Shown: piece after piece, positions 1-35,099 of the stretch
Layout: every line of letters begins with the position of its first letter
Numbering within the stretch: position 1 is the first letter of the stretch
NCBI GenBank assembly: GCA_964637485.1
Contig: CAZWUU010000002.1
Location: 1 to 36,330, forward strand
DNA: 36,330 bases
Reading direction: 5' to 3'
Source: an uncultured Candidatus Saccharibacteria bacterium
GTDB lineage: Bacteria > Patescibacteriota > Minisyncoccia > Phycocordibacterales > PALSA-1337
Translations under genes and position numbers: made by a program
Notes under the pieces: generated by a model
Database searches by the model: none
Told to the model about the DNA's origin: nothing
What the model saw: the letters and a program-made list of their open reading frames with translations, nothing else

Positions 1-990
<990 letters not shown>

Positions 991-17299: not shown

Positions 17300-17303
17300 A
17301 TTT

Positions 17304-17507: not shown

Positions 17508-17527
17508 GTAATTTGATTTATTTTCTT

Positions 17528-17968: not shown

Positions 17969-17984
17969 GGTTATTGGTTATTTA

Positions 17985-20134: not shown

Positions 20135-20135
20135 A

Positions 20136-21401
20136 TCAGTATTTTAATATTGACTTGAATGAATCGGCGTCGCTCCTCCCCACCAAGGCCAAATTGAGAT
20201 GTTTATCTACGAATATTTGATTGGCGAGTTTTCTTACATCTTCGGCTGTTACAGACTGAATCTTCCCTAGAATTTCCTTTGGAGTCTCTATCTTGCCCTT
20301 CAGAATCTCCGCCGAACCGGCATATTCTGCTCTGGCTTCCGATGTTTCGAGTTCAAGCATAGTAGTTCCTGATATATAATCCTTGGCTTTTTTCAATTCA
20401 CTTTCTGGCACGAGATCAGTCTTAAACCTAGCGCAAACCTTGAGTATCTCTGTGATTGCTTCCTTAACCCTATTATTGTCCACTCCCGCAGATATAGATA
20501 ATTCGCCATGATCCGTAGAAGGACCGTGATCTGTTTTTATGTAATAACATATTCCCATTTCATCTCGCATTTTAGTAAACAATCTAGAACTCATCCCCTT
20601 GCCCATAACAGTTGCAAGCACAGTCATGGCAGGCAGTCTCTCGTCTGTTATCGGAAATGTTCTAGTAGATATGACCAGATGAGTCTGATCAGTTTCTTTG
20701 AATTTAGAACGCATTTTCGGCACACTCTGTGCTTCCTTGACAGGAAGCTTGGCCTTGCCCTTCTCGGATGAGATGGATGAAAACGCTTTATCTATTTTCT
20801 GGATTATCGTCTTTTCGTCGAATGAGCCGGACACTATCACTATCGTTTTTTCACTGACGTAGTGAGAATTCCTATAGTCGACGATATCTTGTCTTTTGAA
20901 TGATTTTACGGTCTCTTCTGTGCCTGCAATATTCCATCCGGCCGGCTGATCTCCATATAGCAATTCATTCATGATGTCATGAACTTGATACTGTGGAAGG
21001 TCGTTATACATTCGAATCTCTTCTACGATCACACCTTTTTCCTTCTCTATCTCCTGTTCATTCAATAAAGGATCGATATACATGTCAGCCACTACATCCA
21101 GAGCAATATCCAACTTTTTTGCGTCTGCTTTTACCCAATAACCCGTCACTTCCTGACCTGTAAAGGCGTTATAATGCGCCCCTATACTATCCAACTCTCT
21201 GGAAATATCAGACATCTTGGGTCGCTTCGTAGTACCCTTGAATACCATATGCTCTAAGAAGTGTGATATGCCGTTTATCTTCTTAGTTTCGTATTTAGAT
21301 CCGGCCTTGACCATTATGAGAATCGTCACGGAAGGATTATCGGCCATCGGTACCGTCACTACGGTCAACCCATTATCTAAAATAGTTTTATTGAATTGCA
21401 T
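20136..21401 (-). CDS. M16 (pitrilysin/insulinase) family zinc peptidase
   Basis: Inverted zinc motif [11 protein letters not shown] (HxxEH). 421 aa. Its stop is 1 nt from the metG start. Confidence 0.88.
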
Positions 21402-21407
21402 GAAAAC

Positions 21408-21416
21408 ACTCTAGCA
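21408..21416 (-). promoter_or_regulatory. Extended -10-like TGCTAGAGT 6 nt upstream of the M16 peptidase ATG
   Basis: The minus strand reads TGC-TAGAGT-GTTTTC-ATG (ATG at 21401). Confidence 0.35.
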
Positions 21417-21427
21417 AAAAAGCCCGC

Positions 21428-21468
21428 AAAATGAAATGAAAAATCCCGCCTCCTATGACAGAGGCGGG
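21428..21468 (-). terminator. Intrinsic terminator (minus strand)
   Basis: Minus strand: CCCGCCTC-TGTCATAG-GAGGCGGG followed by ATTTTTCATTTCATTTT. Confidence 0.75.
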
Positions 21469-21660
21469 GGTTGATTGTTTGCCGAGTAGCTATCCGAGTC
21501 GCAGGAAGCTACAAGGCGGCCGATGCGTTGGCGATATTCTTGTTGAGGCGGATCGAGCGGGCGGTGGGGTCGTGATTATGGCGCATGTTTCGGGGATCTC
21601 CAGATGCTGTATTCAACAGGATTCCAATGATAGGAAACCGCAAGGAACAGCTGGAAACAA
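21428..21660 (-). ncRNA. GC-rich structured noncoding island (candidate sRNA, riboswitch-type leader or long glyQS 3' UTR); family unknown, strand uncertain
   Basis: About 230 nt without a credible ORF, clearly more GC-rich than its flanks. On the minus strand it is bounded by a TTGCAA-16 nt-TAGTAT promoter-like element (21687-21660) and the terminator at 21428-21468. Base composition argues the other way: the plus strand is the G/U-rich one. Confidence 0.35.
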
Positions 21661-21712
21661 TACTAACAAACGACTATATATTTGCAAGTGTATTATTTCT
21701 GAACTTTGTATA

Positions 21713-23104
21713 TCAGCCAATCTTGGATTTTATATAATTCACCAAATCTTTTTCGAGGATCCTTTCCTGTTTTCCTGTATCGCGATCTCTTACCGTCACA
21801 CCAGCGCTTTTCTCTATCGTTTCGAAGTCGATCGTCACGCAATACGGAGTGCCTATTTCATCCTGTCGGCGATACCTCTTGCCTATATTGCCATTGTCAT
21901 CAAAATTAACTGCCGGTATCTCCTTTTTTATTTCTGCGTATATTTCTTTGGCTTTCTTTACCAGTTCCGGCTTATTCTTCAAAAGCGGAAATACTGCAAT
22001 TTTATATGGAGCTATTCGCGGTGCGAATTTCATATATACCCTCTTTTCTCCGCCGAGCTCGTCTACAGTATAAGCATTTGTTAAGACAGCCAGAAGCGAC
22101 CTATCGACGCCAAATGACGGCTCTATACAATGCGGGACAAAACGCTCCTTTGTGATTTCATCATAGTAACTCAAATCGACTTTGCTATATTCGCTGTGAC
22201 GCGTAAGGTCATAATCCGTTCGATAGGCCAAACCATACAATTCCTTTCGTCCAAAAGGAAAATCAAATTCAAAATCGATCGTTCTCTTGGAATAAAAAGC
22301 TCGATCTCCATCCGGTATTTCGAGTTCATGCACCCTGTCGACATCCAGTCCGATATCGACATTAAATGCTTTGATCTCCTTTCTGAAATGTTCGAAGGAC
22401 GTAGTCCAATCTTTAGGATTAACAAAATATTCTATTTCCATCTGCTCAAATTCTCTGGACCGGAATAGGAAATCTCTCGGTGCGATTTCGTTTCTGAAGG
22501 CTTTTCCGATCTGCGCCAAGCCGAATGGCAGAGATGGATGTTCTGTATCTAAAACATTTTTAAAATTTACAAACATTCCTTGTGCTGTCTCCGGTCGCAA
22601 ATATGCGATAGACGTGGTGTCTTCTGATGCCCCAACTTGGGTCTTAAACATCATATTAAATTGTTTTGGTACACTCCAATTAACATTCCGACAATTTGGA
22701 CATTCAACACGCGAATTCATTAACATTTCGTGTTGTTTATGAGCATCAGCCGGAATAATTTGAACCTGGCCCGGAGACATTCTTGCTAACAATACATCTG
22801 CTCGATCACGATGTTTGCACTTTGCACATTCAACTAGCGGATCAGAGAAACCACTAGCATGTCCGCTTGCCTCCCAGACTCTCGGATTCATAATGATGGC
22901 GGCATCCATTCCATACATATCATCTCTATCGTCGACAAAACGCTTCCACCAGACATTCTTAATATTGTTTTTCAACATGACTCCGAGATGTCCATAATCC
23001 CATGTACCAGCCAAACCACCGTATATTTCTGAACCCTGAAATATGAAACCTCGCCTCTTGCACAGCGAAACCAACGAATCCATCAATTCTTCGTTTTTAT
23101 TCAT
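21713..23104 (-). CDS. glyQS: Glycyl-tRNA synthetase (alpha2 homodimeric type)
   Basis: 463 aa of class II GlyRS type (FRNEIAPRDFLFRSREFEQMEIEYF, GVDR, anticodon-binding C-terminus). Confidence 0.92.
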   Translation of the reverse strand: MNKNEELMDSLVSLCKRRGFIFQGSEIYGGLAGTWDYGHLGVMLKNNIKNVWWKRFVDDRDDMYGMDAAIIMNPRVWEASGHASGFSDPLVECAKCKHRDRADVLLARMSPGQVQIIPADAHKQHEMLMNSRVECPNCRNVNWSVPKQFNMMFKTQVGASEDTTSIAYLRPETAQGMFVNFKNVLDTEHPSLPFGLAQIGKAFRNEIAPRDFLFRSREFEQMEIEYFVNPKDWTTSFEHFRKEIKAFNVDIGLDVDRVHELEIPDGDRAFYSKRTIDFEFDFPFGRKELYGLAYRTDYDLTRHSEYSKVDLSYYDEITKERFVPHCIEPSFGVDRSLLAVLTNAYTVDELGGEKRVYMKFAPRIAPYKIAVFPLLKNKPELVKKAKEIYAEIKKEIPAVNFDDNGNIGKRYRRQDEIGTPYCVTIDFETIEKSAGVTVRDRDTGKQERILEKDLVNYIKSKIG

Positions 23105-23122
23105 ACGGGCATTTTACTCTAA

Positions 23123-25069
23123 CTATGGAGCTTTGACTACCACGCCGTCTCCAGGCCTAAATGTAGTATCAGTGCTGAAACTTGTAGTGAGATACATCTG
23201 AGCATTTTCGATTGACTCTTTCGTCCAGTTATCGAGGCCTGTCAATCGCGCCTGATTTACAATGATAGGAGACGTGCCTACATGCTCGACTGATGGTTCA
23301 ACTGAGACTTGGAAAGCAACCTCCTTTCGACCAGACGATGATGTATATGTATTTATCCGGCCAACATTCCATGTGACGAGACCGCTGTTACTGTCATATT
23401 TTATATCCTCAGACTGCGGACTCACCTGTCCCGTCCATGTCACATAGGGTGGAAGCGTGGCTGTGACTACGGCATTTGTGACGACATTATTTGTATTGTC
23501 TATAGACCAGACCACGGTATATGTAGAAGTTCTATCTGATACAGGGGGTATCGGGCCTGTGTTTATAAACGGACCACTATTTCTCAAAATTCTTCCTGAC
23601 AGATTTGTTTCAGTTGAGACTTTTATTCGTCTTGCAGTCTCTCCTGTTTTCATAGGTACATTTATATTACTCACGCGGTCACCCGTGGCATAGACTTGGA
23701 TATTAATTTCGGGATTAGTGATATTGCTTAATGCACCTCCAGACTCTGAGGGCGTGACATTGAAAGTAAGATTGCCACTCGCTCCGGCAGAAACCGTCGC
23801 CAATTCGGGGTTGGTTCTCTGATCCCAGATCATATCGTCCGTTCCAGACCTGTAATACCCTCCCCAGCTCGTCACATACGTCTTATCGTAAGCAGAACCA
23901 TCCAAATGAGCTACAATAACCAGATTTTTGACTGTTTCCGGCAGGTTGTTGGCCCATCTGATCCTGACATTTGTGGATTTTCCAAACTTGGCATTCTTAT
24001 CTGCAAGTCCAGTATCACCATCTATAGATATATCCAGGGAAATGAAAGGTTTTCGTATATTTATTTCTTGTTGAACATCCATAAAGGCAGTTCCTATGAT
24101 GTTCGGATTTGTCGGATTACGCGCTCCCACAGAAAAGTTGAATACGCGAAGCTCATCGTCCTCTCCAGTCAAACTGCCAGTCACACTGACCGTCCTCTCT
24201 CCTCCCGGAGGAATGTCACCGATATTCCAAACTGTATTATCTATAGTCAGAGGTTTGAGCGAGGAAGTTTTGAAACTAAAACCGAAAGGATAGACAGCCT
24301 TTACCAAGACATTTTTTATCGTATTCGTAGAATTCGATTTTATATTTAGACGAACATCGAAGCTCTGTCCGGAAATAGTTTCCTTTATTGAATTAATACT
24401 CACCACTATAGGCGAAGCACTGATGAGAACATCGTGGCTGTTTTCCTTGGTAAACACCGATGACGAACCGGCAATTCCGTATGTAACTGTTGCCAATATT
24501 TTCTTCTGTGAGTTTTGCTCTCCGAAGATCACTGATTCGACCGATTTTGATGCCGAACCGCCGGACGGAATGTCGCCCATCACATATCGCACATCTTCGA
24601 GAAGAGTGGTTGTGTCTACAGGATCAGTCGATCCGGCAGGAAATTTTATATGCAGATCGACAGTCTTCAGAGCGACGTTATTTTTATTGATTACTGTAAC
24701 TTCAAACTTGGAAGGGCTTCCTCCGGAAATGGATATGGGCCCTGTTATTTTTATATCTATATTGTCTCCAGAAATAAAATTGGAACCATTAAAGAACATG
24801 TAAGCCCCAGCGCCTACTGCTAGAACACAAAAAACAAAGGATGATATCAAGAGTTTTGTAAAAAAAGACATACCGCGCTTAGAATTATCCTCATATTCCT
24901 GATTTAATACAACCTCCTCCTTTTCTTCTTCTGCCCTGCCCCAATCCCTAGGTAAATCCGACTCCTCGTCGCTGTATCGAAGTTTTCTGTTCGTTTTTAT
25001 TTTCGGAGCATCTCTTTCATACAGAGATTGTTTCAAATCCTCTATTTTGTTTCTTTCATTAGGATCCAT
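23123..25069 (-). CDS. Membrane-anchored protein with a large extracytoplasmic region of DUF11/CARDB-like beta-sandwich repeats
   Basis: Acidic cytoplasmic N-terminus, one TM helix (LLISSFVFCVLAVGAGAYMFF), then repeated motifs such as GDIPSGGSASKSV and WNIGDIPPGGERTVSVTG. The ORF track starts at TTG 25075. ATG 25069 is preferred because TATAAT lies 6 nt upstream of it. Confidence 0.7.
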   Translation of the reverse strand: MDPNERNKIEDLKQSLYERDAPKIKTNRKLRYSDEESDLPRDWGRAEEEKEEVVLNQEYEDNSKRGMSFFTKLLISSFVFCVLAVGAGAYMFFNGSNFISGDNIDIKITGPISISGGSPSKFEVTVINKNNVALKTVDLHIKFPAGSTDPVDTTTLLEDVRYVMGDIPSGGSASKSVESVIFGEQNSQKKILATVTYGIAGSSSVFTKENSHDVLISASPIVVSINSIKETISGQSFDVRLNIKSNSTNTIKNVLVKAVYPFGFSFKTSSLKPLTIDNTVWNIGDIPPGGERTVSVTGSLTGEDDELRVFNFSVGARNPTNPNIIGTAFMDVQQEINIRKPFISLDISIDGDTGLADKNAKFGKSTNVRIRWANNLPETVKNLVIVAHLDGSAYDKTYVTSWGGYYRSGTDDMIWDQRTNPELATVSAGASGNLTFNVTPSESGGALSNITNPEINIQVYATGDRVSNINVPMKTGETARRIKVSTETNLSGRILRNSGPFINTGPIPPVSDRTSTYTVVWSIDNTNNVVTNAVVTATLPPYVTWTGQVSPQSEDIKYDSNSGLVTWNVGRINTYTSSSGRKEVAFQVSVEPSVEHVGTSPIIVNQARLTGLDNWTKESIENAQMYLTTSFSTDTTFRPGDGVVVKAP

Positions 25070-25075
25070 TGCCAA

Positions 25076-25081
25076 ATTATA
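25076..25081 (-). promoter_or_regulatory. TATAAT 6 nt upstream of ATG 25069
   Basis: The minus strand reads TATAAT-TTGGCA-ATG, directly after the recO stop. Confidence 0.4.
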
Positions 25082-25669
25082 CTACAAATGACTGAATTTA
25101 AGGGCTTTGTTTATTTTTGGATTGATCACACCTATGTCGGCCGAAGCTTTTCTGAGCATCTCTGCTGAGATTTTTTCATTAACGATATATTCAGTTCGAG
25201 GGTCATTTTCTATATAACCCAGAAGGAACAGTATCTTGTAGACTATGACAGATTCTAGACATTTTACATCCTGAGGCGATAAAGACCCACCGAGATCAAG
25301 CATGGATTCCCTGATCACTCGGAAAAGTTCAGGGTGAGACTCCTCGCCCTGCAATAGTCGTCTTAGCAGGCCCGCTACACGACACGCCAGCTCGTATCTA
25401 GGATCATCGACCTTCAATACGGTCTGGTAATCCGCTGGTTGTGCGCTGGTCAATCTGTAGTAGTCTTTACCTCTTACGAGTGAAAAATCTCCGAAAGAAT
25501 AGTCCTGGCAATAATATCTTAGTTTAGATTTTTCAAATCTTATTCCTTGAGCAATCGCGGCCACGAATCCGAGCTTATCGGTAAATATAAACAGCATTTT
25601 GTCGGCCTCGCCTTTTTCCATGGAGCCGACTATAAACCCTGAAGTGTTAATAATCGAGTACATACTCAA
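25082..25669 (-). CDS. recO: DNA repair protein RecO (short form)
   Basis: N-terminal OB-like segment (GFIVGSMEKGEADKMLFIFTDKLGFVAAIAQGIRFEKSKL) and a helical C-terminus with ...LFLLGY. Its start overlaps the ileS stop by 4 nt. Confidence 0.65.
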   Translation of the reverse strand: MSMYSIINTSGFIVGSMEKGEADKMLFIFTDKLGFVAAIAQGIRFEKSKLRYYCQDYSFGDFSLVRGKDYYRLTSAQPADYQTVLKVDDPRYELACRVAGLLRRLLQGEESHPELFRVIRESMLDLGGSLSPQDVKCLESVIVYKILFLLGYIENDPRTEYIVNEKISAEMLRKASADIGVINPKINKALKFSHL

Positions 25670-28600
25670 AACTTCAAATCCAAAGTCGGACCATATTCTA
25701 CAGAGGAAATCTTCGTGACTTTCATGATTGCATCAATATTTTTCGTAACCATTGTCCGAAGATCTTCAGTCACAACTAGGACAGCGACGTCCTTTATGGT
25801 TAACCCTTTCGATTTTCTCAAGTCTTGAACTTTTCGTAAGAATTCCCTCAACTCCCCTTCTTCTCTCAATTCATCGGTTATGTTTGTATCTAGTTCTACT
25901 GAATTTTTTATGTTTTGATCGAAAACAACCGACTTGATATTGACTTCGTCTTTTATGATCTCAATCATTTCTTCAGACAATTTCTTGAAAGCCATATTAT
26001 TTACAGATAACTTATGAAGCGGTTGTCTGACATTTATTTTTGACTGCATTCTGGCATCCAGTCCAGCCGAACAGACAGCACGAACCACTTCCATCTGGTC
26101 CAATATTTTCTTATCCGCCTTCTTCATTTTTGGCCATTTTTCCAGATGAACGCTCTCTGATTTGCCTCCCATTTCCATGTATATTTCCTCAGCAAAAAAT
26201 GGAGTAAACGGCGCCAATACTTTTGACAGTTCGAGCATTACATATTTTAGAGTGGAAAGGGCTTGCTTCTTATCTCCTCCATTATTCTTGAAACGGTCTC
26301 TGGATCTCCTGACATACCATTGGGACAGATCGGCGGAGAAGTCTCTTAGAGCCCTGGTTGGTTCGAAGAATTTGTACTTATCCATACTTTCGGCTGTAAT
26401 CATCGACAGTTCGGCCAATCTAGCAATTATCCACTTATCAAGAATATTTTTCGAAGAGTCCTTTGCTTCCACACTTCCATCATCGTAAAGCTTATAAAAT
26501 GAGATAACATTGGAAATGAGGTTGAAAACTTTCTTGACTATCTCATCGACTGTTTTTTCTTCGAAATTCTTCGACTCACCAGGTTGATTGATAGAATACA
26601 TCCACAATCTGAGAGCATCCACGCCATATTTATCCATCATGTCCCAAGGATTTACGATATTACCGAGCGATTTCGACATCTTTTTGCCATCCTTATCCAA
26701 GATATGTCCCAAACAAACGACGTTTTTATATGATCTACCCTTGCCCATGATGACTCCGATAGCATGCAAGGTGTAAAACCAGCCACGAGTTTGATCGATG
26801 GCTTCCGAGATAAAATCTGCCGGATACGCAAACGAGCCAAAAACAGATTTTTTTTCGAACGGATAATGATCCTGAGCGAACGGCATACCTCCAGAATCAA
26901 ACCAAACATCCAAAACTTCTTTAACTCTTCTATATTTACCCCCACAGGAACAATCCAGAACGACATCATCTATAAATGGCTTATGGAGGTCAGATTCATA
27001 TTCTGAATTATGAGGCAAAATTTTGAAATCAAGCTTTCTACACTCAGCATTTTTTATAGCATCCTTATCAGTTCTTGCGTTCAAAGTCTGCTTTCTATCT
27101 AGACCTTTTGCGGCAGATTCGAGGAGGAATATTGGCGTTTCGTGAGAAATGATCAGTATTTTCTTACCTTTATATTTCGATTCGATATCATACAGGAAAT
27201 CTCCCATCCTTTTTTTGATCAGAGCAAAATTCTCTATACCTCCCTCACTCAGAGTAAATCGATCTTGGCCGACATATTGCTTGTGATAATCATCCACCTT
27301 TCTGCCATTCCACTCGCCGGTGCCGAGTTCGCCCAATCTTTCATCAATGACTATCTGACTATCAGCAAGATTCTGAATTGATTTCACTATATCCGCAGTT
27401 TCTTTAGTCCTCACGAATGGCGAAACAAAAACCATATCGAACTTCTGCTTTTTAAATGAAGTAGCAGATTTTTCCACCTGCCTTCTGCCCTTATCGGTCA
27501 GGTGATGTGGAGCATCGGCGATTCCAGACAAAATACCCAAAACATTATTTTCTGCCTCACCATGTCTCATCACAAAGTAATCATTCTCTGGAGATCGGGC
27601 AATTTCAGAAATTGAACCGGGCACTTTTCTCTTTTCACACTTATCGCATATCCATACAGGTAAAGGCGTCCCCCAATATCTCTCCCTAGAAATTGCCCAG
27701 TCCTTGATTTCTCTGAGCCATTCTCCGAACCTTCCCTCTTTGATGTGATCCGGCTCCCAATTTATCTTATCGTTGGCCTTAACGAGTTCATTTCTAAGAG
27801 ACGACATCCTGATGTACCAGGAATCCCTAGCAAAATAGATAAGAGGCGTCTTACATCGCCAACAAAACGGATAGGTGTGTTCATACTTTTCCTTGGCAAA
27901 CAGAAGACCTCGACTAGCCAAATCCTTTATTATCGCCACATCAGTCGTTTCATCCTTTACGAAGGCACCCGCCAGAAATCCAGCTTCGTTTTTAAATGTG
28001 CCATCATCAGATACAAGATGATATTTTGGTAATCCTACTTTAGTTCCCAATTCAAAATCATCCTGACCATACATGACCGCAGTATGTACAACTCCTGTAC
28101 CATCAGCAGTCGTCACAAAATCAGCACTATACACCTTGTAGGCATTACATAGCTTGGATTTTTCTGAACTGGATATATTTTGTGCCAAAAAAGGATACAG
28201 GGGTTCATACACGACTCCGACAAGCTGTTTCCCTGCTACTATCTTCAATATTTCGTACTTGGCATCTTTCATGACAGACAAACGTTCCTTGGCCAAGATA
28301 AGTGTTTCTCCCGTTTCTATTTTTATTTCGCAGTACTGTATCTCGTCTGAAACTGCCAATGCCACGTTGCCTGGCAATGTCCAAGGAGTCGTCGTCCAAG
28401 CCAGAATAAATGTATTGTCGCGATCTTTTAGCTTGAATTTTACATAAACCGAAAGATCTTTGACCACATCATAGCCCTGTGCCAATTCATGAGAGGACAA
28501 TGCCGTACCACACCTAGGACACCACGGGACAACTTTATAATCTTTATATAATAATCCTCTATCGTCAGCATTTTTTATGATATTCCAAATAGATTCTATG

Positions 28601-29046
28601 TATTTGGCTTCATACGTGATATATGGATTTTTCAAATCAACCCAATAGCCTATTCTTTCTGTAAAGTTTTCCCACTCTTTTACATATTTCCAGACAGACT
28701 CCCTACACTTATTATTAAATTCGCCAATACCATATTTCTCAATATCTTTTTTTGATTTAAGACCTAATTCTTTTTCCACCTGTAATTCAACAGGTAATCC
28801 ATGAGTATCCCAGCCGCCTTTCCTGCGCACACGATAACCCAACATCGTTTTATATCTAGGTATAGCGTCTTTGAATGCTCTGGCTTCAAGATGGTGTATG
28901 CCAGGCAGACCGTTTGCCGTCGGTGGCCCTTCATAAAATACAAAATCTCCTTTTGGAGATTTCTTCTCCAGTGTCTTTTTAAATATTTCCTTCTCTTGCC
29001 AGTATTTGAGGATTTTTTCTTCCTTTTCAGCTCTTTGACTCTTCAT
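25666..29046 (-). CDS. ileS: Isoleucyl-tRNA synthetase with an inserted histidine-phosphatase (PGAM-like) domain
   Basis: PPTANGLPGIHHL (HIGH-type), CP1 editing motifs TTTPWTLPGN and HTAVMYGQDD, WAISRERYWGTPLPVW, DVWFDSGGMPF and KMSKS (aa 789-793). An extra ~190 aa at aa ~488-675 is described in the next feature and in the findings. Confidence 0.93.
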   Translation of the reverse strand: MKSQRAEKEEKILKYWQEKEIFKKTLEKKSPKGDFVFYEGPPTANGLPGIHHLEARAFKDAIPRYKTMLGYRVRRKGGWDTHGLPVELQVEKELGLKSKKDIEKYGIGEFNNKCRESVWKYVKEWENFTERIGYWVDLKNPYITYEAKYIESIWNIIKNADDRGLLYKDYKVVPWCPRCGTALSSHELAQGYDVVKDLSVYVKFKLKDRDNTFILAWTTTPWTLPGNVALAVSDEIQYCEIKIETGETLILAKERLSVMKDAKYEILKIVAGKQLVGVVYEPLYPFLAQNISSSEKSKLCNAYKVYSADFVTTADGTGVVHTAVMYGQDDFELGTKVGLPKYHLVSDDGTFKNEAGFLAGAFVKDETTDVAIIKDLASRGLLFAKEKYEHTYPFCWRCKTPLIYFARDSWYIRMSSLRNELVKANDKINWEPDHIKEGRFGEWLREIKDWAISRERYWGTPLPVWICDKCEKRKVPGSISEIARSPENDYFVMRHGEAENNVLGILSGIADAPHHLTDKGRRQVEKSATSFKKQKFDMVFVSPFVRTKETADIVKSIQNLADSQIVIDERLGELGTGEWNGRKVDDYHKQYVGQDRFTLSEGGIENFALIKKRMGDFLYDIESKYKGKKILIISHETPIFLLESAAKGLDRKQTLNARTDKDAIKNAECRKLDFKILPHNSEYESDLHKPFIDDVVLDCSCGGKYRRVKEVLDVWFDSGGMPFAQDHYPFEKKSVFGSFAYPADFISEAIDQTRGWFYTLHAIGVIMGKGRSYKNVVCLGHILDKDGKKMSKSLGNIVNPWDMMDKYGVDALRLWMYSINQPGESKNFEEKTVDEIVKKVFNLISNVISFYKLYDDGSVEAKDSSKNILDKWIIARLAELSMITAESMDKYKFFEPTRALRDFSADLSQWYVRRSRDRFKNNGGDKKQALSTLKYVMLELSKVLAPFTPFFAEEIYMEMGGKSESVHLEKWPKMKKADKKILDQMEVVRAVCSAGLDARMQSKINVRQPLHKLSVNNMAFKKLSEEMIEIIKDEVNIKSVVFDQNIKNSVELDTNITDELREEGELREFLRKVQDLRKSKGLTIKDVAVLVVTEDLRTMVTKNIDAIMKVTKISSVEYGPTLDLKF
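27022..27585 (-). other. In-frame histidine-phosphatase superfamily (phosphoglycerate-mutase-like) domain embedded in IleRS
   Basis: aa ~488-675 carry RHGE (494-497), SPFVRTKETA (Arg546), ERLGELGTGEWNG and ISHETP (His635). Together these make up the full branch-1 catalytic motif set. Confidence 0.75.
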
Positions 29047-29111
29047 GACGTGACCATTCTAGCGCAATATTTGCCGACTTGCGACTCATATTTTTTTCGA
29101 AGGGATGAAGC

Positions 29112-30830
29112 TTACATTTTATGCGGAACCTTTATTCCGAGTATATCCAGACCGCTTTCGACAATTTCATAGAATTTCCTGGTCAATGCCAGTCTGTATG
29201 AAGACAAACCTTCCGAATCGTCGATGATCGTATGCATAGAATAGTAATTATTATATGCACCGCAAAGGTTTATAAGATAATTAGCGATGAGTTGAGGTGA
29301 TAATTCATTGATTGCTCGACTTGTAATATCATCGAACCTGGAAATCAATCTTTCCACATCATGAACCTGGGAAGGATATCTACTTATCGGCGTCGTTTGA
29401 ACATTCATGCTTTCAGCTTTCTTTAATACGGAACGAGCTCTGACTGCCGTATATTGCAGATACGGTCCAGAATCTCCTTCGAATGAAATAGATTTCGCAG
29501 AATCAAAGATCACATCTCCGCCGACGGACTGACGGAGGATCGTGTATTTGATCGCTGCTATGGCTACGGTTTCACTCACTTGATCTTTTTCCGTATCTGA
29601 CCAATCCCTGTCAGCGACTTTTTTTATGACCATGTTCTTGATATCTCCGATGAGCTCTTCCGCACTTATGATATTCCCCTTCCTCGAAGACATCTTCCCA
29701 TCCCTAAATCTCATCATTCCATGACTTATATGGAGGGTCTTTTCGCCAACTTTTGTATTTATGACTGACAAAACCTTCCTTAGGACTCGGAAATAATCAT
29801 CCTGCTCATTTGCTGTGATGATGATCGACTTCGACAAATCTGGGTACAATTCGAATTTCAGCGTATTCAAACCCAATTCTTTTGTTTCGTAAGTGGGTAT
29901 GCCCTGCGAGGTCACGAAAACTCTGGTATGAAGGCCGTCCTTTTCTCCCTTATAGACAATAGCACCGTCGCTTTTCTCGAAAACGCCAGATTTCGCAAAC
30001 TTATCGACGACTCGTAGACCATCGTGCACGACTTCACTTTCGAAAAAATATTTATCAAACTTTGTACCTAGCAAAGAATATATTCCTTCGAAATAATCGA
30101 GACTCCATTTGCGTCCCATGTCATATATAGCATTGATTTCTTGATCACTACGATCAAATATCTTCATGTTTATGACCGCCATCTCTTTTTTTACAGCCGG
30201 ATCATCCTCGCATTGAGAACCTGTGACATACATATCACCTAGCCATTTTACTTTTTCCACAACCGTTCCCTTCATGGAAGACATATCTACCGAAGTTTTC
30301 TTGTCCTTATTCATGATAGCCCATATGGTTTTTGCCACATGAAGGCCGACATCGCCCTGATAACATGCCCTTATGACCTTATATCCGCCCTTTTCGAACA
30401 ATCTAGCCACAGATTCGCCGATAGCATTCGCCATGAGATGACCAATGTGGAAAATTTTGAACGGATTTGGATCAGTGTACTCGACCATAATCGTCTTTGT
30501 ATTTGAAACAGCCGAAGATTTGGATCTGCTGGTCGAATTATCAATAATGAAATCTAGATAATATCTTGGTTCCATTTTGAAGTTTATAAACCCAGGTCCA
30601 GCAGTCTCTATGGCAGAAACAAGGGAAATATTTTCATTTTGGAGTCTCAGAACGATTTCGTTAGCGACAGCAATTGGATTTTGTTTGGCCTTCTTGGCTA
30701 TTATCATGGCGACATTAGTTGAAAACTCCCCCCGATCATCGATTGGAGGATAGTCGAGAGCTACCTCAACATCATGGAAACCCATATCAAATATAACTTT
30801 CTGTATCTTTTCTTTCAGCAATTGTTTCAT
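29112..30830 (-). CDS. argS: Arginyl-tRNA synthetase
   Basis: 572 aa with an N-terminal Add-1-like domain, HIGH-type FHIGHLMANAIG, and a DALR anticodon-binding C-terminus ending ...HKM. Confidence 0.92.
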   Translation of the reverse strand: MKQLLKEKIQKVIFDMGFHDVEVALDYPPIDDRGEFSTNVAMIIAKKAKQNPIAVANEIVLRLQNENISLVSAIETAGPGFINFKMEPRYYLDFIIDNSTSRSKSSAVSNTKTIMVEYTDPNPFKIFHIGHLMANAIGESVARLFEKGGYKVIRACYQGDVGLHVAKTIWAIMNKDKKTSVDMSSMKGTVVEKVKWLGDMYVTGSQCEDDPAVKKEMAVINMKIFDRSDQEINAIYDMGRKWSLDYFEGIYSLLGTKFDKYFFESEVVHDGLRVVDKFAKSGVFEKSDGAIVYKGEKDGLHTRVFVTSQGIPTYETKELGLNTLKFELYPDLSKSIIITANEQDDYFRVLRKVLSVINTKVGEKTLHISHGMMRFRDGKMSSRKGNIISAEELIGDIKNMVIKKVADRDWSDTEKDQVSETVAIAAIKYTILRQSVGGDVIFDSAKSISFEGDSGPYLQYTAVRARSVLKKAESMNVQTTPISRYPSQVHDVERLISRFDDITSRAINELSPQLIANYLINLCGAYNNYYSMHTIIDDSEGLSSYRLALTRKFYEIVESGLDILGIKVPHKM

Positions 30831-30837
30831 AAGGCGA

Positions 30838-30846
30838 ATTGTAACA
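30838..30846 (-). promoter_or_regulatory. Extended -10 (TGTTACAAT) 7 nt upstream of the argS ATG
   Basis: The minus strand reads TGT-TACAAT-TCGCCTT-ATG (ATG at 30830). Confidence 0.45.
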
Positions 30847-30902
30847 GAGCCCTTATCAGCCTGCTATTTGACTTTTTATATTTTATAGGTTAATCTGCTT
30901 AC

Positions 30903-31086
30903 AGAGAGGTCGCGCATGCGAAGAAAACCGATGTCCTACGCCGCCTAACGATATGGCATCGGGAGCGTATTAGCCCCTCCCTGCTCCTTCGCAAAACCCT
31001 CCGTCGTCTCCGAGTGACCGAAATGGTCATACGCAGTCGGTCACTCGGAGCGACGCCCAACCGCAATCATTGATTGCGGTTTTTTA
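30903..31086 (+). ncRNA. GC-rich, highly structured noncoding island; candidate stand-alone ~185-nt sRNA. The alternative is a minus-strand riboswitch-like leader of argS. Family unknown.
   Basis: Plus strand: TTGACT (30868-30873), 17 nt, TAATCT (30891-30896). This is followed by nested hairpins including a 19-bp stem (31002-31055), and ends in a perfect terminator at 31060-31086. No ORF of 60 aa or more on either strand. Confidence 0.4.
31060..31086 (+). terminator. Intrinsic terminator (plus strand), placed convergent to the glyA 3' end
   Basis: ACCGCAATC-ATT-GATTGCGGT (9-bp perfect stem) followed by TTTTTTATT. Confidence 0.75.
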
Positions 31087-31102
31087 TTACTCCGGATTAG
31101 TT

Positions 31103-32308
31103 TTATTTAATTTGTGCTTTTCTTAGAATCAAGTCGATCTTTCTGGCGATCTTGATCATATCTTTCTCTTTCTTGCCTCTTGTTGTTTCAGCTGCCGTGC
31201 CAAGACGAATACCCGATGGATCCATCGGCGTTCTGCTGTCAAAAGGAATTGCGTTTTTATTCACAATAATACCCTCCTTCTCGAGAACATCACTTGCGAT
31301 CTTACCCGGCACGCCTCCTGCTCCTTTTTCATTTATTACATTACTCATCCAAGTATCAACCAGTATGAGATGTGAATCTGTTCCGCCAGAAATGATCCTC
31401 CATCCGAGATTTTTAAGCTCATTAGCCAGCGTATTTGCATTTTTTACCACCTGCAGTGCATAACGAACAAAACTTTTTGAATCAGCTTCTCTTAGAGCGA
31501 CCGCGATTCCTGCTATCTGATTTATATGCGGACCACCTTGCAAGCCGGGAAATACTGCTTTGTCTATTTTCTTGTCTAATTCTCTAGCATCTTTTTTTAC
31601 AAAAATCATAGCCGATCTTGGTCCGCGTAATGTCTTGTGAGTGGTAGTAGTCACAATATCAGCATGCAAAAACGGTGAGGGATATGCGCCTCCAGCGACC
31701 AAACCAGCGATGTGAGACATGTCTACCATAAGTAGCGACTCGCTCGCATCAGCGATATTTCTCATTTTCTCCCAGTCAATGTGTCTCGGATAGGCTGTAT
31801 AACCGGCCACGATAACATTTGGTTTTTCTTTTATAGCTTGCTCCATCAACTGATCATAATTTAATGTTTCAGTCACAGGATCAATACCGTAAGGAACCTG
31901 GGTCCAAAACTTACCGGTAGCTGACACTTTATGTCCATGGGTCAAATGTCCGCCATGATCGAGAGACATGCCCATTATCTTCCCTCCCTGCGGAACTGTT
32001 GCCGTATATACCGCCAAATTTGCCGGCGATCCAGACAGAGGTTGGACATTCACATGCCATTTTTCCTTATCAAGTTTGAACAATTTTAGAGCTCTTTCGA
32101 TACATAAATTTTCTATCTTATCTACTATTTCATTGCCTCCGTAATAACGCTTCCCTGCATAACCCTCGGCATATTTATTGGTCAATTCTGAACCGAGAGC
32201 TTCCAGGACATCTTTAGAAACATAATTTTCCGAAGCAATCAGATTTATTACCTTCTTTTGTCTGACCTGCTCTGCTTTTATCAGTTTTTTTATTTGCACA
32301 TCTTTCAT
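31103..32308 (-). CDS. glyA: Serine hydroxymethyltransferase
   Basis: SHMT throughout (LIASENYVS, PLP-lysine region TTTTHKTLRGPR). ATG 32308 (MKDVQIKK...) is preferred over the track's 32365, which overlaps dut. Confidence 0.93.
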   Translation of the reverse strand: MKDVQIKKLIKAEQVRQKKVINLIASENYVSKDVLEALGSELTNKYAEGYAGKRYYGGNEIVDKIENLCIERALKLFKLDKEKWHVNVQPLSGSPANLAVYTATVPQGGKIMGMSLDHGGHLTHGHKVSATGKFWTQVPYGIDPVTETLNYDQLMEQAIKEKPNVIVAGYTAYPRHIDWEKMRNIADASESLLMVDMSHIAGLVAGGAYPSPFLHADIVTTTTHKTLRGPRSAMIFVKKDARELDKKIDKAVFPGLQGGPHINQIAGIAVALREADSKSFVRYALQVVKNANTLANELKNLGWRIISGGTDSHLILVDTWMSNVINEKGAGGVPGKIASDVLEKEGIIVNKNAIPFDSRTPMDPSGIRLGTAAETTRGKKEKDMIKIARKIDLILRKAQIK

Positions 32309-32316
32309 GGTTTTTG

Positions 32317-32325
32317 ATTGTAACA
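32317..32325 (-). promoter_or_regulatory. Extended -10 (TGTTACAAT) 8 nt upstream of glyA ATG 32308
   Basis: The minus strand reads TGT-TACAAT-CAAAAACC-ATG, in the dut-glyA gap. Confidence 0.4.
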
Positions 32326-32333
32326 CGAAAAAA

Positions 32334-32756
32334 TTATTTTCCCGTACTCCCCATGCGACCCCCACCTCTCTTGGTTTCGTTCAATTTATCGACTAGAACT
32401 ATATCTGGATTTTCAATTTTCTGAATTAGCATTTGAGCAACCTTGTGGCCCTTAAGAAAGGTATATTTTTTATTGGATATATTCGCCATCCCTATCATGA
32501 TTTCCCCTCTGTAGCCGGAATCAATAACTCCAGCCAAAACTTTTAAGCCTTCTTTTATAGATATTCCGCTTTTATCCCACACAAGGCCCACATAACCAGA
32601 TGGTATTTCCATCGCAATACCACTCTTTACCGGCCTTATCTCTCCAGGAGCAAAGGTTGTATCTTCCAGAGCAAATAGATCCATACCCGCATCGCCTGGA
32701 TGTGCGTACTTCGGAACAACTGCTTCATTGTGCATTTTCTTGACCTTGATTTTCAT
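32334..32756 (-). CDS. dut: dUTP pyrophosphatase (dUTPase)
   Basis: Trimeric dUTPase motifs (PGDAGMDL, GVIDSGYRGEI, RGGGRMGSTG). ATG 32756 (MKIKVKK...) is preferred over 32792. Confidence 0.9.
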   Translation of the reverse strand: MKIKVKKMHNEAVVPKYAHPGDAGMDLFALEDTTFAPGEIRPVKSGIAMEIPSGYVGLVWDKSGISIKEGLKVLAGVIDSGYRGEIMIGMANISNKKYTFLKGHKVAQMLIQKIENPDIVLVDKLNETKRGGGRMGSTGK

Positions 32757-32773
32757 ATTATTAAAATATACTG

Positions 32774-32782
32774 TGATATAAT
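32774..32782 (+). promoter_or_regulatory. Extended -10 (TGATATAAT) for thyA, back-to-back with the dut -10 (TATATT on the minus strand, 32770-32765)
   Basis: TG 32774-32775 and TATAAT 32777-32782. The thyA ATG at 32808 gives a leader of about 19 nt. Confidence 0.45.
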
Positions 32783-32807
32783 CGCACTGCAATCATTTTT
32801 TTTCAAC

Positions 32808-33719
32808 ATGAAACCATTTAATGAACGAGTTCCAGATCATCAATATAAAGACCTGTTGAGAGACATTTTAGAACACGGAACCAGAACTCCAAGTCAACAA
32901 GGAGTAGACGCTCTTACAATCATTGGTCCTAAGCCTTTTCATTTCAAATTTGATAATGGTGTGCCTCTCATAACAGAGCGCAACATGAACCCCAAGACCT
33001 CCGAAAATTTGCCCGTAACGGTTTGGCAACAGGCAGTCGGGGAAATTTTTGCATTTATAAATGGTGTCAGAACTCAGAAAGAACTAGAAAATTTCGGCTG
33101 CTACTGGTGGCGATCTTGGGTAACAAAGGATAAATGTGAGAAAAGGGGCCTTGAAGAAGGAGATCTGGGTCCTGGATCGTACGGGGCCGCTTTCCATGAC
33201 TTTCCCACCCAGGACGGCAAGGCCTACAATCAATTTCAAAATATTATTGAACAGATAAAGGAAATGCCTCACCTAAGAACTCATTTTATCACTCCCTGGA
33301 TACCTCAATACACCATTCGAGGTAAAGGAAAAAATCAAAAAGTTGTAGTTGCCCCGTGTCACGGTTGGATGCATATAAGGATCATAGAGAACAAGCTGAC
33401 GTTGCACATGTTCCAGAGATCATGTGATGTGCCAGTAGGACTTCCTGCAAACCTTATACAATATTCGGCACTGACACTGGCTCTTGCTCATGTCACAGGG
33501 ACTGAACCATACGAATATGTTCACAGCTTTTCTGACGCACACATATACGTAGATCAGATCGACGCAGTAAAGACCATGATCGAAAGAGAGTCCCGAAGAC
33601 TTCCTACACTGGAGATCAATAGGAGCAAATCAAATATTTTTGATATTAGAAGAGACGACTTTATTTTGACTGACTACGATCCCCACCCTGGAATAAAGAA
33701 GATTCCTGTAGCAATATAA
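32808..33719 (+). CDS. thyA: Thymidylate synthase (ThyA type)
   Basis: Catalytic-Cys region VVAPCHGWMHI, plus DVPVGLPANLIQYSALT and HIYVDQ. The start is taken at MKPFNE; the longer track ORF overlaps dut. Confidence 0.9.
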   Translation: MKPFNERVPDHQYKDLLRDILEHGTRTPSQQGVDALTIIGPKPFHFKFDNGVPLITERNMNPKTSENLPVTVWQQAVGEIFAFINGVRTQKELENFGCYWWRSWVTKDKCEKRGLEEGDLGPGSYGAAFHDFPTQDGKAYNQFQNIIEQIKEMPHLRTHFITPWIPQYTIRGKGKNQKVVVAPCHGWMHIRIIENKLTLHMFQRSCDVPVGLPANLIQYSALTLALAHVTGTEPYEYVHSFSDAHIYVDQIDAVKTMIERESRRLPTLEINRSKSNIFDIRRDDFILTDYDPHPGIKKIPVAI

Positions 33720-34238: not shown

Positions 34239-35099
34239 CTATTTTGCTTTTTTAACAAAAATAATTTTAACTCCCTTACTTTTTAGTATTCTCTTCCCAT
34301 CCAACACTCCATAACCACCTGAATAATATAGTTTTGAAATACCTGAATATGCAATCAATTTTGCACACGGCGGACAAGGAAAGGTGGTTACATACATAGA
34401 CGTTCCTTTCAAAGAAACACCCTTCAGGGCCGCCTCAGCTATGAGGCCAGCTTCAGCATGCATGGCGGTCGATAATTCCAGATTAACTCCTTTACTAAAA
34501 TCACACCTAGGATCGCCATCTTGATATGGCATATGTTCCGAAGGTACGTGTCGATTGTGAGAAATCAGTACTATCTCATCGCCTTGAACTATTGCAGCTC
34601 CGACACGTCTCCACCAATCACTACTTTTGTTTGCCTCCTCTTTTAGCAAGGCAATGATTTTTTGATCGGAATCCTTATCAGAGATAGTCTGATCAATTTC
34701 TACAGCTGTTTCCTCGGTTGATTTGTGTTTATCCCAACGCAAAAAAACATCGTCGAACACCACCTTATTCTTCGTAAAATAATTATTGCTGATCTCACGC
34801 ATGATTTCATCATTCGGCAAAACAACATCTGTATGTGACTTAGCCAGATCGATCAGATTCTTCTTTGAAGCAACCACTATATTGTCGAAAATGTTCCAAC
34901 CGATTATTGCCTGACGCACCGTTTCTGGTTTTAAGGCTCTCAAATCCTTTGTTAATGCTTTAAAATCTGCCGAGACATCAGATCCTATCAGGTAAAGACT
35001 CTTAATATCAGAATGTTTATCGAAAAATTTCTTATATCCATCGTGCAAAACCGGCACATATGCAACGACGGCCTTATTCTTTGCTTTTGTTTTTTGCAT
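34239..35099 (-). CDS. dCMP (CMP/dCMP-type) deaminase with an uncharacterised ~140-aa N-terminal domain
   Basis: The C-terminal half has zinc motifs HAEAGLI and PCPPCAKLI. The N-terminal half is unrecognised. The start is ambiguous (35099, or 35126/35129), and every option overlaps the upstream gene's end. Confidence 0.8.
   Translation of the reverse strand: MQKTKAKNKAVVAYVPVLHDGYKKFFDKHSDIKSLYLIGSDVSADFKALTKDLRALKPETVRQAIIGWNIFDNIVVASKKNLIDLAKSHTDVVLPNDEIMREISNNYFTKNKVVFDDVFLRWDKHKSTEETAVEIDQTISDKDSDQKIIALLKEEANKSSDWWRRVGAAIVQGDEIVLISHNRHVPSEHMPYQDGDPRCDFSKGVNLELSTAMHAEAGLIAEAALKGVSLKGTSMYVTTFPCPPCAKLIAYSGISKLYYSGGYGVLDGKRILKSKGVKIIFVKKAK

Follow-up and report, generated by a model that had tools for sequence, protein, structure and literature searches.

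A complete small histidine phosphatase domain nested in the zinc knuckle of a type 2 isoleucyl-tRNA synthetase of CPR bacteria

Analysis of the window, a 36,330-nt stretch of DNA from an uncultured Candidatus Saccharibacteria bacterium (contig CAZWUU010000002.1), revealed an ileS gene that, judging from its sequence, probably encodes a bifunctional enzyme: a type 2 (GxHH) isoleucyl-tRNA synthetase (IleRS) carrying a complete small histidine phosphatase. An earlier note on this DNA had described an ORF of 1126 aa uninterrupted by a stop codon or frameshift, and this ORF was present on the minus strand. The parts of the gene and its catalytic motifs were as follows.

25666..29046, minus strand: ileS ORF (1126 aa), type 2 IleRS with nested histidine phosphatase
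27592..29046, minus strand: N-terminal part of the IleRS, aa 1–485 (tRNA-synt_1 at aa 11–483)
28891..28902, minus strand: GIHH, aa 49–52, swapped GxHH form of the class I HxGH motif (translation)
27637..27648, minus strand: CDKC, first Cys pair of the zinc knuckle, C467 and C470 (translation)
27007..27591, minus strand: inserted branch-1 histidine phosphatase, aa 486–680 (PF00300)
27559..27567, minus strand: RHG, R494, H495 and G496 (translation; invariant in 120 relatives)
27544..27546, minus strand: N501, Asn of the RHGxxxxN motif (alignment and translation)
27409..27411, minus strand: R546, second phosphate-binding Arg, SPxxR (invariant)
27328..27330, minus strand: E573, predicted general acid/base (invariant)
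27142..27144, minus strand: H635, second catalytic His (invariant)
25669..27006, minus strand: C-terminal part of the IleRS, aa 681–1126 (Anticodon_1, DUF5915)
26944..26952, minus strand: CSC, second Cys pair of the zinc knuckle, C699 and C701 (alignment and translation)
26668-26682, minus strand: KMSKS, aa 789–793 (translation)

The motifs named in the earlier note (PGIHHL, C467-D-K-C470, RHG 494–496, R546, E573, H635, C699-S-C701, and KMSKS) were all found where it had placed them. PGIHHL, which it had called HIGH-type, was present but proved to be the swapped GxHH variant of HxGH.

Residues 1–485 comprised the first half of the Rossmann/HUP fold, CP1, and the connective peptide as far as the first Cys pair; matches to the structures 1wk8 and 1wny located the CP1 editing domain at about aa 191–393. 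Residues 681–1126 comprised the second half of the catalytic fold (with DVWFDSG and KMSKS), followed by the anticodon-binding and type 2 C-terminal domains, with Pfam matches to Anticodon_1 at aa 870–1012 and to DUF5915 at aa 964–1118. The protein scored 889.1 bits against TIGR00392 ileS (cut-off 621.4), and GIHH, KMSKS and the editing-domain matches provided the class I motifs and CP1 of an IleRS. The best PDB matches, by sequence and by fold, were PmIleRS2 8c8w and 8c8v. The protein was nearer to PmIleRS2 and T. thermophilus IleRS than to IleRS1 and, with DUF5915, showed the type 2 organisation of the C terminus, which lacks a C-terminal zinc-binding domain. The GxHH variant has been described for mupirocin hyper-resistant type 2 IleRS (PMC10485003); both GxHH and HxGH were represented among the relatives of the window protein. 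The intact motifs and the conserved syntenic position argue that this ileS encodes the housekeeping enzyme. Rfam and tRNA scans detected no regulatory RNA or tRNA close to ileS.

Pfam analysis placed His_Phos_1 (PF00300) at aa 491–670 (27037–27576), with E=1e-29 and 104 bits against a gathering cut-off of 21.7, covering positions 2–182 of the 194 in the profile. It was nested, as the earlier note had anticipated, within a tRNA-synt_1 match that was split in two (399.6 bits). The insert, which that note had set at 27022–27585 (aa 488–675), is now delimited as aa 486–680, and the insertion site lies between the two Cys pairs of the zinc knuckle, shortly ahead of the second half of the catalytic fold. 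The nearest known synthetase, PmIleRS2 of Priestia megaterium (8c8u–8c8w; 34% identity, TM 0.79 on the target), shares with the window protein GxHH, KMSKS, CP1, the zinc knuckle and the type 2 C-terminal domains but has only about 4 residues in place of the 195-residue phosphatase. Query residues 485 and 681 aligned to residues 477 and 482 of the 8c8w chain, in agreement with the roughly 190 extra residues that had been proposed for the knuckle. The spacing of the Cys pairs was 220–259 residues in nested forms versus 20–59 in insert-free CPR IleRS. Both the CDKC and the CSC pair showed 99% conservation in the 120 closest relatives; the CSC pair was lost in about 17 more distant nested forms.

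The insert contained the full catalytic core of branch-1 histidine phosphatases (R494, H495, R546, H635 and E573, together with N501), in which H495 is the predicted phospho-acceptor histidine. R494, H495, G496, N501, R546, E573 and H635 were all invariant in the 120 closest relatives. Of 312 mapped domains, 254 matched a 10-residue catalytic pattern exactly; among the others, many were truncated fragments and a minority had substitutions. Complete copies in multi-copy proteins kept the catalytic residues with two exceptions, one ValRS copy with N->A at the Asn position and one IleRS copy with G->A at the glycine position. Modelled by AF2 in isolation, the domain reached a pLDDT of 93.1 and a pTM of 0.90, and in the full-length model the pLDDT was 88–96 for the insert and above 90 for the linkers. 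The domain is thus predicted to fold independently with rigid junctions, and the model also bears out the adjacent termini that had been proposed. A pseudo-enzyme was rejected because the catalytic residues are invariant, and sequence and model together indicate that the inserted domain is probably a complete, catalytically competent phosphatase. Pairwise identity was 45.5% for the insert versus 70.4% for the core, showing that the insert evolves faster. A word-index homologue search with the insert alone as query returned a single protein, P0385.

The PF00300 domain was present in all 120 closest full-length relatives, on contigs of up to 856 kb. The GTDB species genomes yielded 480 matching stretches. 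With each locus taken as the match ±8 kb, and with nesting and the signature motif judged by profile and alignment tests, the domain was nested in one ORF in 77 of the best 80 species loci. Hundreds of assemblies obtained independently, one of them a complete chromosome of 876 kb, contained the domain, and the GC content of the insert was that of the core. Misassembly was ruled out by the 120 relatives, the 77 species loci and the uniform composition. An intein or mobile element was likewise rejected: no intein or endonuclease match was found in Pfam, and the conserved junctions read ...ARSPEN/DYF... and ...ILPHN/SEYE..., with flanks conserved as parts of the fold. The claim that this is a genuine in-frame insertion, neither intein nor chimera, therefore held across hundreds of species. 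A chimeric assembly, intein, mobile insertion or dead spacer has nothing in its favour beyond the odd architecture, the IS200-like domain of one distant relative (P0323) lying elsewhere in that protein. Given the many assemblies, the core-like composition, the lack of intein or endonuclease domains and the invariant catalytic residues, its probability is practically nil. The nested phosphatase is a lineage-wide architecture, not an oddity of the window genome, and is confined to certain CPR lineages. PADLOC, applied to the insert, to the standalone form and to the full-length protein, gave no defence match, and a defence-system component was rejected on this basis. The literature search found no description of a phosphatase nested in IleRS, in line with what the earlier note had supposed; a phosphatase was mentioned neither in PMC10485003 (379 sequences) nor in a 2026 preprint on 96,219 IleRS sequences.

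The earlier note had left open a phosphatase or a mutase of the PGAM type. Foldseek gave TM 0.80–0.81 for PspA (4ij5/4ij6), GpgP (4pz9), PhoE (1h2e), CobC (6e4b) and 6s2q, and an HFP of riboflavin synthesis was also among the fold neighbours; the alpha/beta fold of the branch-1 family was recovered with high model confidence (pLDDT 93.1; 4ij5, 4pz9, 6s2q). The nearest relatives by both sequence and fold were small-molecule enzymes with a normal-sized cap above the active site. The best NCBIfam subfamily match was dPGM_arch, at 91.8 bits against a cut-off of 225; GpmB (42.3 vs 261) and PRK01295 (28.9 vs 316) also fell below their cut-offs. In dPGM of E. coli and yeast, the substrate-binding motifs are E-R-x-Y-G at the acid/base Glu and H-G-N at the second His; both were absent from the insert, which reads E573-L-G-T-G and H635-E-T-P. 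Among fold matches, the small dPGM 1fzt was at rank 20 (TM 0.78), and phosphatases ranked above mutases. A true phosphoglycerate mutase was rejected on the sub-cut-off dPGM scores and the fold ranking. The dPGM_arch match and the presence of 1fzt speak for a glycolytic cofactor-dependent mutase moonlighting within IleRS, but with scores so far under the cut-offs, the motifs missing and phosphatases ranked higher, this reading is hardly credible. The domain resembles phosphomonoesterases, not mutases, so that the phosphatase half of the earlier suggestion stood and the mutase half did not. It also fell below the named phosphatase subfamilies (cobC 66.8 vs 162.9, PspA 63.9 vs 350, SixA 38.2 vs 74.5), and its standalone relatives were below every curated subfamily cut-off too.

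Comparison with PspA 4ij5, GpgP Rv2419c 4pz9, PhoE 1h2e and CobC 6e4b/6nru (TM 0.77–0.81) showed a common size of about 190–210 aa and the full catalytic set RHG...N, R, E, H. These enzymes are free-standing and 18–27% identical to the window domain, whereas the latter is nested and its sister-lineage form is basic and ileS-adjacent. The RNase H/acid phosphatase (NF005567, PRK07238; mycobacterial Rv2228c type) also joins a CobC-like phosphatase to a nucleic-acid enzyme, but by end-to-end fusion and with a different partner enzyme; NF005567 matched the insert at 73.9 bits, far under its cut-off of 326. ileS_w_GNAT (NF040702) is likewise an IleRS with an additional enzymatic domain, but the window protein lacks a GNAT domain and scored 330 bits where the cut-off is 1999.

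In sister CPR lineages, the same phosphatase (hp) is encoded by a separate gene for a very basic protein of about 190 aa, located 4–16 bp upstream of an insert-free ileS, in the order argS-hp-ileS-recO. The neighbours of ileS in the window are the following.

29112..30830, minus strand: argS, directly upstream of ileS with a 65-bp spacer (tRNA-synt_1d, DALR_1, Arg_tRNA_synt_N)
25082..25669, minus strand: recO-like gene, directly downstream of ileS (RecO_N)

Homologues of recO were found in 70 of the 80 nested loci and in 34 of the 80 loci of the standalone scan, the latter selected by the phosphatase motif alone. Of 74 standalone genes, 55 were followed immediately by an insert-free ileS, at a median distance of about 8 bp, and 6 more had one within 5 kb downstream or upstream. 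In all 49 standalone loci that extended far enough upstream, argS was the next gene on that side, which matches the gene order of the window. The nested domain is, on comparison of sequence and gene order, orthologous to the free-standing hp gene, as its internalised version. Phosphatase and synthetase distances co-varied in the broader set (Mantel p=0.002), although the signal was modest. Among the 120 close relatives, whose divergence is star-like, the correlation of insert and core distances was 0.35 (Pearson) and 0.06 (Spearman).

The free-standing forms had a median pI of 9.9 and +8.9 charges per 100 aa. In this comparison, which is between lineages, the IleRS of genomes with the free-standing type had a pI of 8.6 and the nested domains 6.3. 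The trend was seen again in three adjacent-type clades, and the charge shift was greatest beside the catalytic motifs.

Transitions between the adjacent and nested states numbered 5–7 in 40 of 40 bootstrap NJ trees, a crude method, versus about 32 with shuffled labels; the nested form is estimated to have arisen about 5–7 times. Besides the knuckle, at least three other loops carried the domain in relatives (at least four surface loops overall), with 1–4 copies per protein, some relatives having 2–4. Insertions in other loops occurred in bona fide IleRS (P0275, P0371 and P0273), and the domain was also inserted in two ValRS (P0307 and P0316). The sites at the knuckle, aa ~725–742 and aa ~855–868 all lie in or beside the KMSKS-bearing second half of the catalytic fold. 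Only internal insertions were seen, and no simple end-to-end hp-IleRS fusion. Copies within one protein are regarded as old because they were only 35–41% identical, a value that also ruled out recent tandem duplication or an assembly artefact as the source of extra copies. The distant relative P0323 had the phosphatase at the knuckle, a GNAT domain in the loop at aa ~730–742 and an IS200-like domain elsewhere.

On balance, we slightly favour the reading that the phosphatase works in partnership with the class Ia synthetase, being no mere passenger, and that selection favours a phosphatase active site on the catalytic body. The repeated internal insertion at several loops, the multi-copy proteins and the entry into ValRS support this coupling, as do the conserved hp-ileS adjacency and the co-variation of distances; the basic free-standing form, with its charge shift largest near the catalytic motifs, would suit a partner of the RNA type. 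Several observations pull the other way and sustain an explanation that we consider somewhat unlikely, namely an uncoupled housekeeping small-molecule phosphomonoesterase (acting, e.g., on phosphoserine, a sugar phosphate or a nucleotide) in metabolism or salvage, with the fusion serving co-expression only. A moonlighting metabolic enzyme of a reduced genome, as conceived in the earlier note, survives as this rival only; the alarmone-linked activity also suggested there received no support. On this view, entry into ileS would follow only from the neighbouring position of the gene and the permissive surface loops of IleRS. By fold and by sequence family, the domain lies closest to small-molecule phosphatases, which have a normal-sized cap. 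The insert evolves faster than the core, as if under less constraint, several loops are used as though geometry were irrelevant, and the divergent extra copies could be sub-functionalised enzymes. Genomic proximity by itself raises the chance of capture, the ancestral site just upstream favouring rearrangement into ileS over other genes, and operon adjacency may be conserved without a functional link, as for ribF-ileS in E. coli. Against the housekeeping phosphatase, internal insertion is mutationally much harder than read-through over a spacer of 4–8 bp, yet every insertion seen, over several independent events, was internal. ValRS, too, acquired this domain, and the free form is unusually basic for a metabolic enzyme, with the charge lost once it is tethered.

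If the phosphatase is coupled to the synthetase, the leading guess among mechanisms is that it gives the enzyme, besides CP1 and by analogy with it, another inserted site of hydrolysis acting on tRNA acceptor ends; taken by itself this is decidedly tentative. CP1 is likewise a hydrolytic domain with a second active site in the same catalytic fold, and as a concept it sets a precedent for a hydrolase insert that works on the CCA end of tRNA. It differs in fold and in hydrolysing the ester of mischarged tRNA versus phosphoryl transfer, and it is universal and ancient, whereas the phosphatase insert is restricted to certain CPR lineages. In the proposed reaction, R494, R546 and H635 would hold the phosphate, N501 would be part of the apparatus and E573 would donate the proton. 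The tRNA end would be freed of a 2'/3'-phosphate or pyrophosphate that prevents its aminoacylation: H495 would take up the phosphoryl group, hydrolysis of the phospho-enzyme would follow, and the CCA end, once healed, would be charged on the same enzyme. To our knowledge, no histidine phosphatase has tRNA as its substrate, and no known reason picks out tRNA-Ile or tRNA-Val. Repair of tRNA ends is nevertheless plausible because a tRNA-specific 3'-CCA pyrophosphorylation that blocks charging exists (PMC11559606). That the domain is a third catalytic site, which would heal phosphate-blocked tRNA ends or otherwise dephosphorylate a synthetase-bound ligand, is likewise put forward as a doubtful proposal. 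Two other couplings appear far less probable. A self-directed protein phosphatase would keep IleRS active by stripping an inhibitory phosphate from it, with a serine in the KMSKS loop as one candidate site. HipA/HipT-type kinase toxins hit such sites in other class I synthetases, protein phosphatases with the histidine-phosphatase fold are known (SixA, PGAM5, Sts), the three insertion sites lie in or near the KMSKS-bearing half, and 1:1 tethering suits a cis-acting phosphatase. On the other hand, IleRS is not known to be phosphorylated in these organisms, and PADLOC gave no defence-related match; a cis reaction needs no multiple copies, the basic free form is ill-suited to bind a basic IleRS (pI 8.6), and the active-site cap is like that of small-molecule enzymes, which makes this very unlikely. 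Even less can be said for product removal, in which hydrolysis of PPi, AMP or Ap4A-type by-products would drive amino-acid activation in a cell of minimal metabolism. Some histidine phosphatases do hydrolyse nucleotides and phosphoanhydrides, and the domain sits on the catalytic body of IleRS and ValRS, both of them class Ia enzymes that edit and consume much ATP. All synthetases would gain from such an activity, yet IleRS and rarely ValRS alone carry the domain, and tethering is needless for diffusible products.

Few enzymes have been studied as closely as the aminoacyl-tRNA synthetases, and a domain gained by one of them, such as an editing domain, is usually the mark of a new function. Here the core of an essential synthetase houses an entire, conserved catalytic domain from an unrelated class of enzymes, in no fewer than several hundred CPR species; the case illustrates the internalisation of an adjoining gene into a host protein. 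Annotations of these proteins vary between 'class I tRNA ligase family protein' and 'histidine phosphatase family protein', and fragments named histidine phosphatase alone could be miscounted in CPR metabolic reconstructions. The repeated capture and the ileS-adjacent free form provide strong comparative evidence for a functional link between this phosphatase and class Ia synthetases. The link may bring to light a novel activity in tRNA repair or quality control, or a new means by which ultra-small symbionts safeguard translation. If the proposed third catalytic site is real, CPR bacteria would possess an unrecognised, lineage-wide step of tRNA repair or quality control, and the partnership would be old, existing both as an hp-ileS two-gene module and as repeated insertions in IleRS and ValRS.

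Pfam analysis of the 1126-aa ileS product (the window protein, whose numbering is used below) revealed that the tRNA-synt_1 domain was split in two (399.6 bits), and that His_Phos_1 (PF00300) lay between the halves at aa 491-670 (E=1e-29, 104 bits; gathering score 21.7). An anticodon-binding domain and DUF5915 were also present. NCBIfam TIGR00392 identified the protein as ileS with 889 bits (cut-off 621). In the alignment with the Priestia megaterium type 2 IleRS (8c8w), query residues 485 to 681 corresponded to chain residues 477 to 482, i.e., about 195 residues in place of about 4. The features were located as follows:

25666..29046, minus strand: ileS ORF, 1126 aa (ORF call)
28891-28902, minus strand: class I signature GIHH, aa 49-52, swapped GxHH form of HxGH (translation)
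27007-27591, minus strand: inserted phosphatase domain, aa 486-680 (alignment to 8c8w)

The Pfam result bore out the earlier note, which had described a histidine phosphatase domain nested within the synthetase domain, and translation and alignment placed all the residues it named where it had put them. Its reading of PGIHHL as HIGH-type did not hold; the motif is non-canonical, the swapped GxHH variant. In IleRS2, Brkic et al. (PMC10485003) linked this variant to mupirocin hyper-resistance. Both HxGH and GxHH were found among relatives with the phosphatase inside the IleRS ORF (nested) and among those with a separate phosphatase gene, hp, beside an insert-free ileS (adjacent-type).

The ileS gene was located in a synthetase-rich, one-strand housekeeping cluster (16241-32365, minus strand). 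No tRNA gene was found by tRNA scan in the whole 36 kb window. The surroundings were:

1-981, minus strand: 23S rRNA gene, 5' part only, continuing past the window end (661 bits to Rfam LSU_rRNA_bacteria, covering model positions 1-856)
16241-17299, minus strand: recA
18701-20134, minus strand: metG
20136-21401, minus strand: M16 peptidase
21713-23104, minus strand: class II synthetase
23123-25075, minus strand: DUF11-like protein, 650 aa
31103-32365, minus strand: glyA (SHMT), followed in order by argS, ileS and a recO-like gene, all minus strand
32700-33719, plus strand: thyA, beyond the cluster
34239-35129: dCMP-deaminase-like gene, beyond the cluster

The full-protein search returned 120 relatives (59-67% identity, 1115-1242 aa) on contigs as long as 856 kb, and PF00300 was present in 120/120. 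A scan of GTDB, one genome per species, with a motif from the insert gave 480 stretches encoding a relative. The best 80 of these all came from CPR/Patescibacteria MAGs, among them a complete 876-kb chromosome; Parcubacteria, Paceibacterota, Minisyncoccia, and Taylor-, Kaiser-, Nomura-, Campbell- and Vogelbacteria were among the labels. In 77 of these 80, a single ORF carried the phosphatase between the N- and C-terminal IleRS parts, and contig ends cut the other three. The GC content was 0.400 both in the insert and in the remaining gene. These results ruled out misassembly, recent transfer and an intein. The domain insertion is genuine, as the earlier note had read it.

Among the 120 relatives, R494, H495, G496, N501, R546, E573 and H635 were invariant, although mean pairwise identity was 45.5% in the insert versus 70.4% in the synthetase core. 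The insert was the most confident region of the AlphaFold2 full model (pLDDT 88-96, both linkers >90); modelled alone, it reached pLDDT 93.1 and pTM 0.90, in agreement with independent folding. The top fold matches of the domain model were phosphomonoesterases of about 200 aa (TM 0.77-0.81), namely the phosphoserine phosphatase PspA, the glucosyl-3-phosphoglycerate phosphatase Rv2419c, a riboflavin-synthesis histidine-family phosphatase, PhoE and CobC. True mutases ranked below them. None of the NCBIfam models matching the insert reached its curated subfamily cut-off. The substrate motifs of dPGM are E-R-x-Y-G and H-G-N, and both were absent from the insert sequence. The PGAM-type, or mutase, reading of the earlier note was thus not upheld; from sequence and model, the insert looks like a working phosphatase. 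As far as sequence can tell, the analysis showed the window protein to be bifunctional, combining IleRS with an intact histidine phosphatase.

When the insert alone was used in an exhaustive representative search, 8987 matches were obtained at E<=1e-3, 867 of them at E<=1e-10. These included IleRS-length proteins and a family of true free-standing proteins of about 190 aa with the sequence 'MKLNNKYYILRHG...GE.R.LN', whose N-x-Y lead-in before RHG is common to the nested domain. Two free-standing proteins, P0332 (363 aa) and P0372 (418 aa), had two tandem phosphatase domains each, with the full catalytic set in both.

Metagenome contigs were scanned with the motif of the free-standing family, so that loci were picked by the phosphatase only; 74 standalone and 6 nested genes were obtained. 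An insert-free ileS (934-1011 aa) lay directly downstream on the same strand in 55 of the 74 standalone loci (median gap about 8 bp) and 0.4-4.9 kb away in 6 more. In 9 of the remaining 13, the downstream contig was shorter than 600 bp. Wherever the upstream sequence was long enough (49 loci), argS ended <=400 bp upstream of hp. Standalone lineages therefore have the gene order argS-hp-ileS-recO; the window and its relatives have argS-ileS[hp inside]-recO. Judged by sequence and gene order, the nested domain is the neighbouring hp gene, internalised, and the nested protein goes back to a conserved pair of hp and ileS genes.

The phosphatase was internalised repeatedly. Counted on neighbour-joining trees only (synthetase core, 757 columns, 100 taxa), 5-7 changes between adjacent-type and nested forms were obtained in 40/40 bootstrap trees, against about 32 with shuffled labels. 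Distances of phosphatase and synthetase co-varied (Mantel p=0.002). P0275 and P0371, both bona fide IleRS (TIGR00392, 816 and 827 bits), had an intact, insert-free zinc knuckle and carried one phosphatase domain in each of two other surface loops, the first ahead of KMSKS and the second past it. The equivalent window positions are:

26821-26874: loop used for insertion in other IleRS, aa 725-742
26443-26484: loop used for insertion in other IleRS, aa 855-868

Both loops are short in the window protein, whose model has its lowest confidence in the first of them (pLDDT <50 at aa 731-738). The IleRS P0273 had phosphatase domains at three sites, and P0296 had two tandem copies at the knuckle; these four proteins thus held 2-3 copies each. 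Besides the knuckle and these two loops, aa ~416-432 was also an insertion site. A further IleRS, P0323 (1066 aa), had three foreign domains:

aa 340-461: IS200-like Y1 transposase domain, inside the editing domain
aa 680-854: histidine phosphatase, at the knuckle
aa 935-1063: GNAT acetyltransferase, in the loop at window aa ~725-742

A curated NCBIfam family, 'ileS_w_GNAT', also exists. The IleRS of CPR bacteria seems particularly prone to insertion of enzymatic domains.

Nested histidine phosphatases were also found in P0307 and P0316, fragments of ValRS type and not IleRS. P0307 had four copies: one precedes the WCISRQ motif, and a tandem of three follows it. Copies within one protein were only 35-41% identical. 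The catalytic residues were kept in all complete copies but two: a ValRS copy had N->A at the Asn position, and an IleRS copy had G->A at the glycine position. No end-to-end hp-IleRS fusion was present among all sequences retrieved, even though reading through the 4-8 bp spacer would make one most easily.

About 17 nested IleRS (loci L006, L017, L019, L021, L023, L025, L028, L032, L034, L035, L037, L044 and L075; proteins P0260, P0309, P0333 and P0358) had none of the four knuckle cysteines that serve as zinc ligands, with the surrounding sequence kept. These cysteines were kept in 41/41 adjacent-type IleRS. In the cysteine-less enzymes, the inserted domain may take over the structural role of zinc.

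Free-standing phosphatases (loci L081-L160) had a median pI of 9.87, with +8.9 net charges per 100 aa; for their IleRS neighbours the values were 8.57 and +1.0. Nested domains had a pI of 6.26 and their host cores 6.65. This trend, very basic when free versus near-neutral when nested, was seen again in each of three separate clades of the adjacent type. The difference amounted to +15.5 charges, distributed over the fold and greatest beside the catalytic motifs. As indirect evidence, the trend fits a free enzyme that needs to find a polyanionic partner, e.g., RNA; once tethered to a tRNA-binding enzyme, it would no longer have to.

We lean towards a functional partnership between the phosphatase and class Ia synthetases over a passenger domain, because of the several independent internal insertions, the multiple copies, the spread to ValRS and the missing simple fusions. 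An uncoupled housekeeping phosphatase, captured through lying next door, is a less probable but serious alternative; proximity alone hardly explains those same four observations. For the partner reading, the leading specific mechanism is a tentative one and somewhat doubtful: like the CP1 editing domain, the insert would be an additional hydrolytic site acting on the tRNA acceptor end, and would strip a charging-blocking 2'/3'-phosphate or pyrophosphate off it. Toxins of the toxSAS type are documented to pyrophosphorylate such 3' ends in a tRNA-specific manner (PMC11559606).

Other roles for the conserved catalytic site appear improbable: a protein phosphatase acting in cis on its own IleRS is unlikely, and removal of nucleotide products slightly more so. 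A true mutase is very unlikely, and an artefact or selfish element is hardly credible.

Full-text search found no description in the literature of a histidine phosphatase in or beside IleRS, as the earlier note had supposed. A nested phosphatase is unmentioned in PMC10485003 (379 sequences) and in a 2026 preprint surveying 96,219 IleRS sequences. The proteins go under generic names in databases, as 'class I tRNA ligase family protein' or, in the case of fragments, 'histidine phosphatase family protein'. Each of the two component families is well known; their combination, the gene-pair form and the repeated internalisation appear to be new, and are of high interest for synthetase and CPR biologists.
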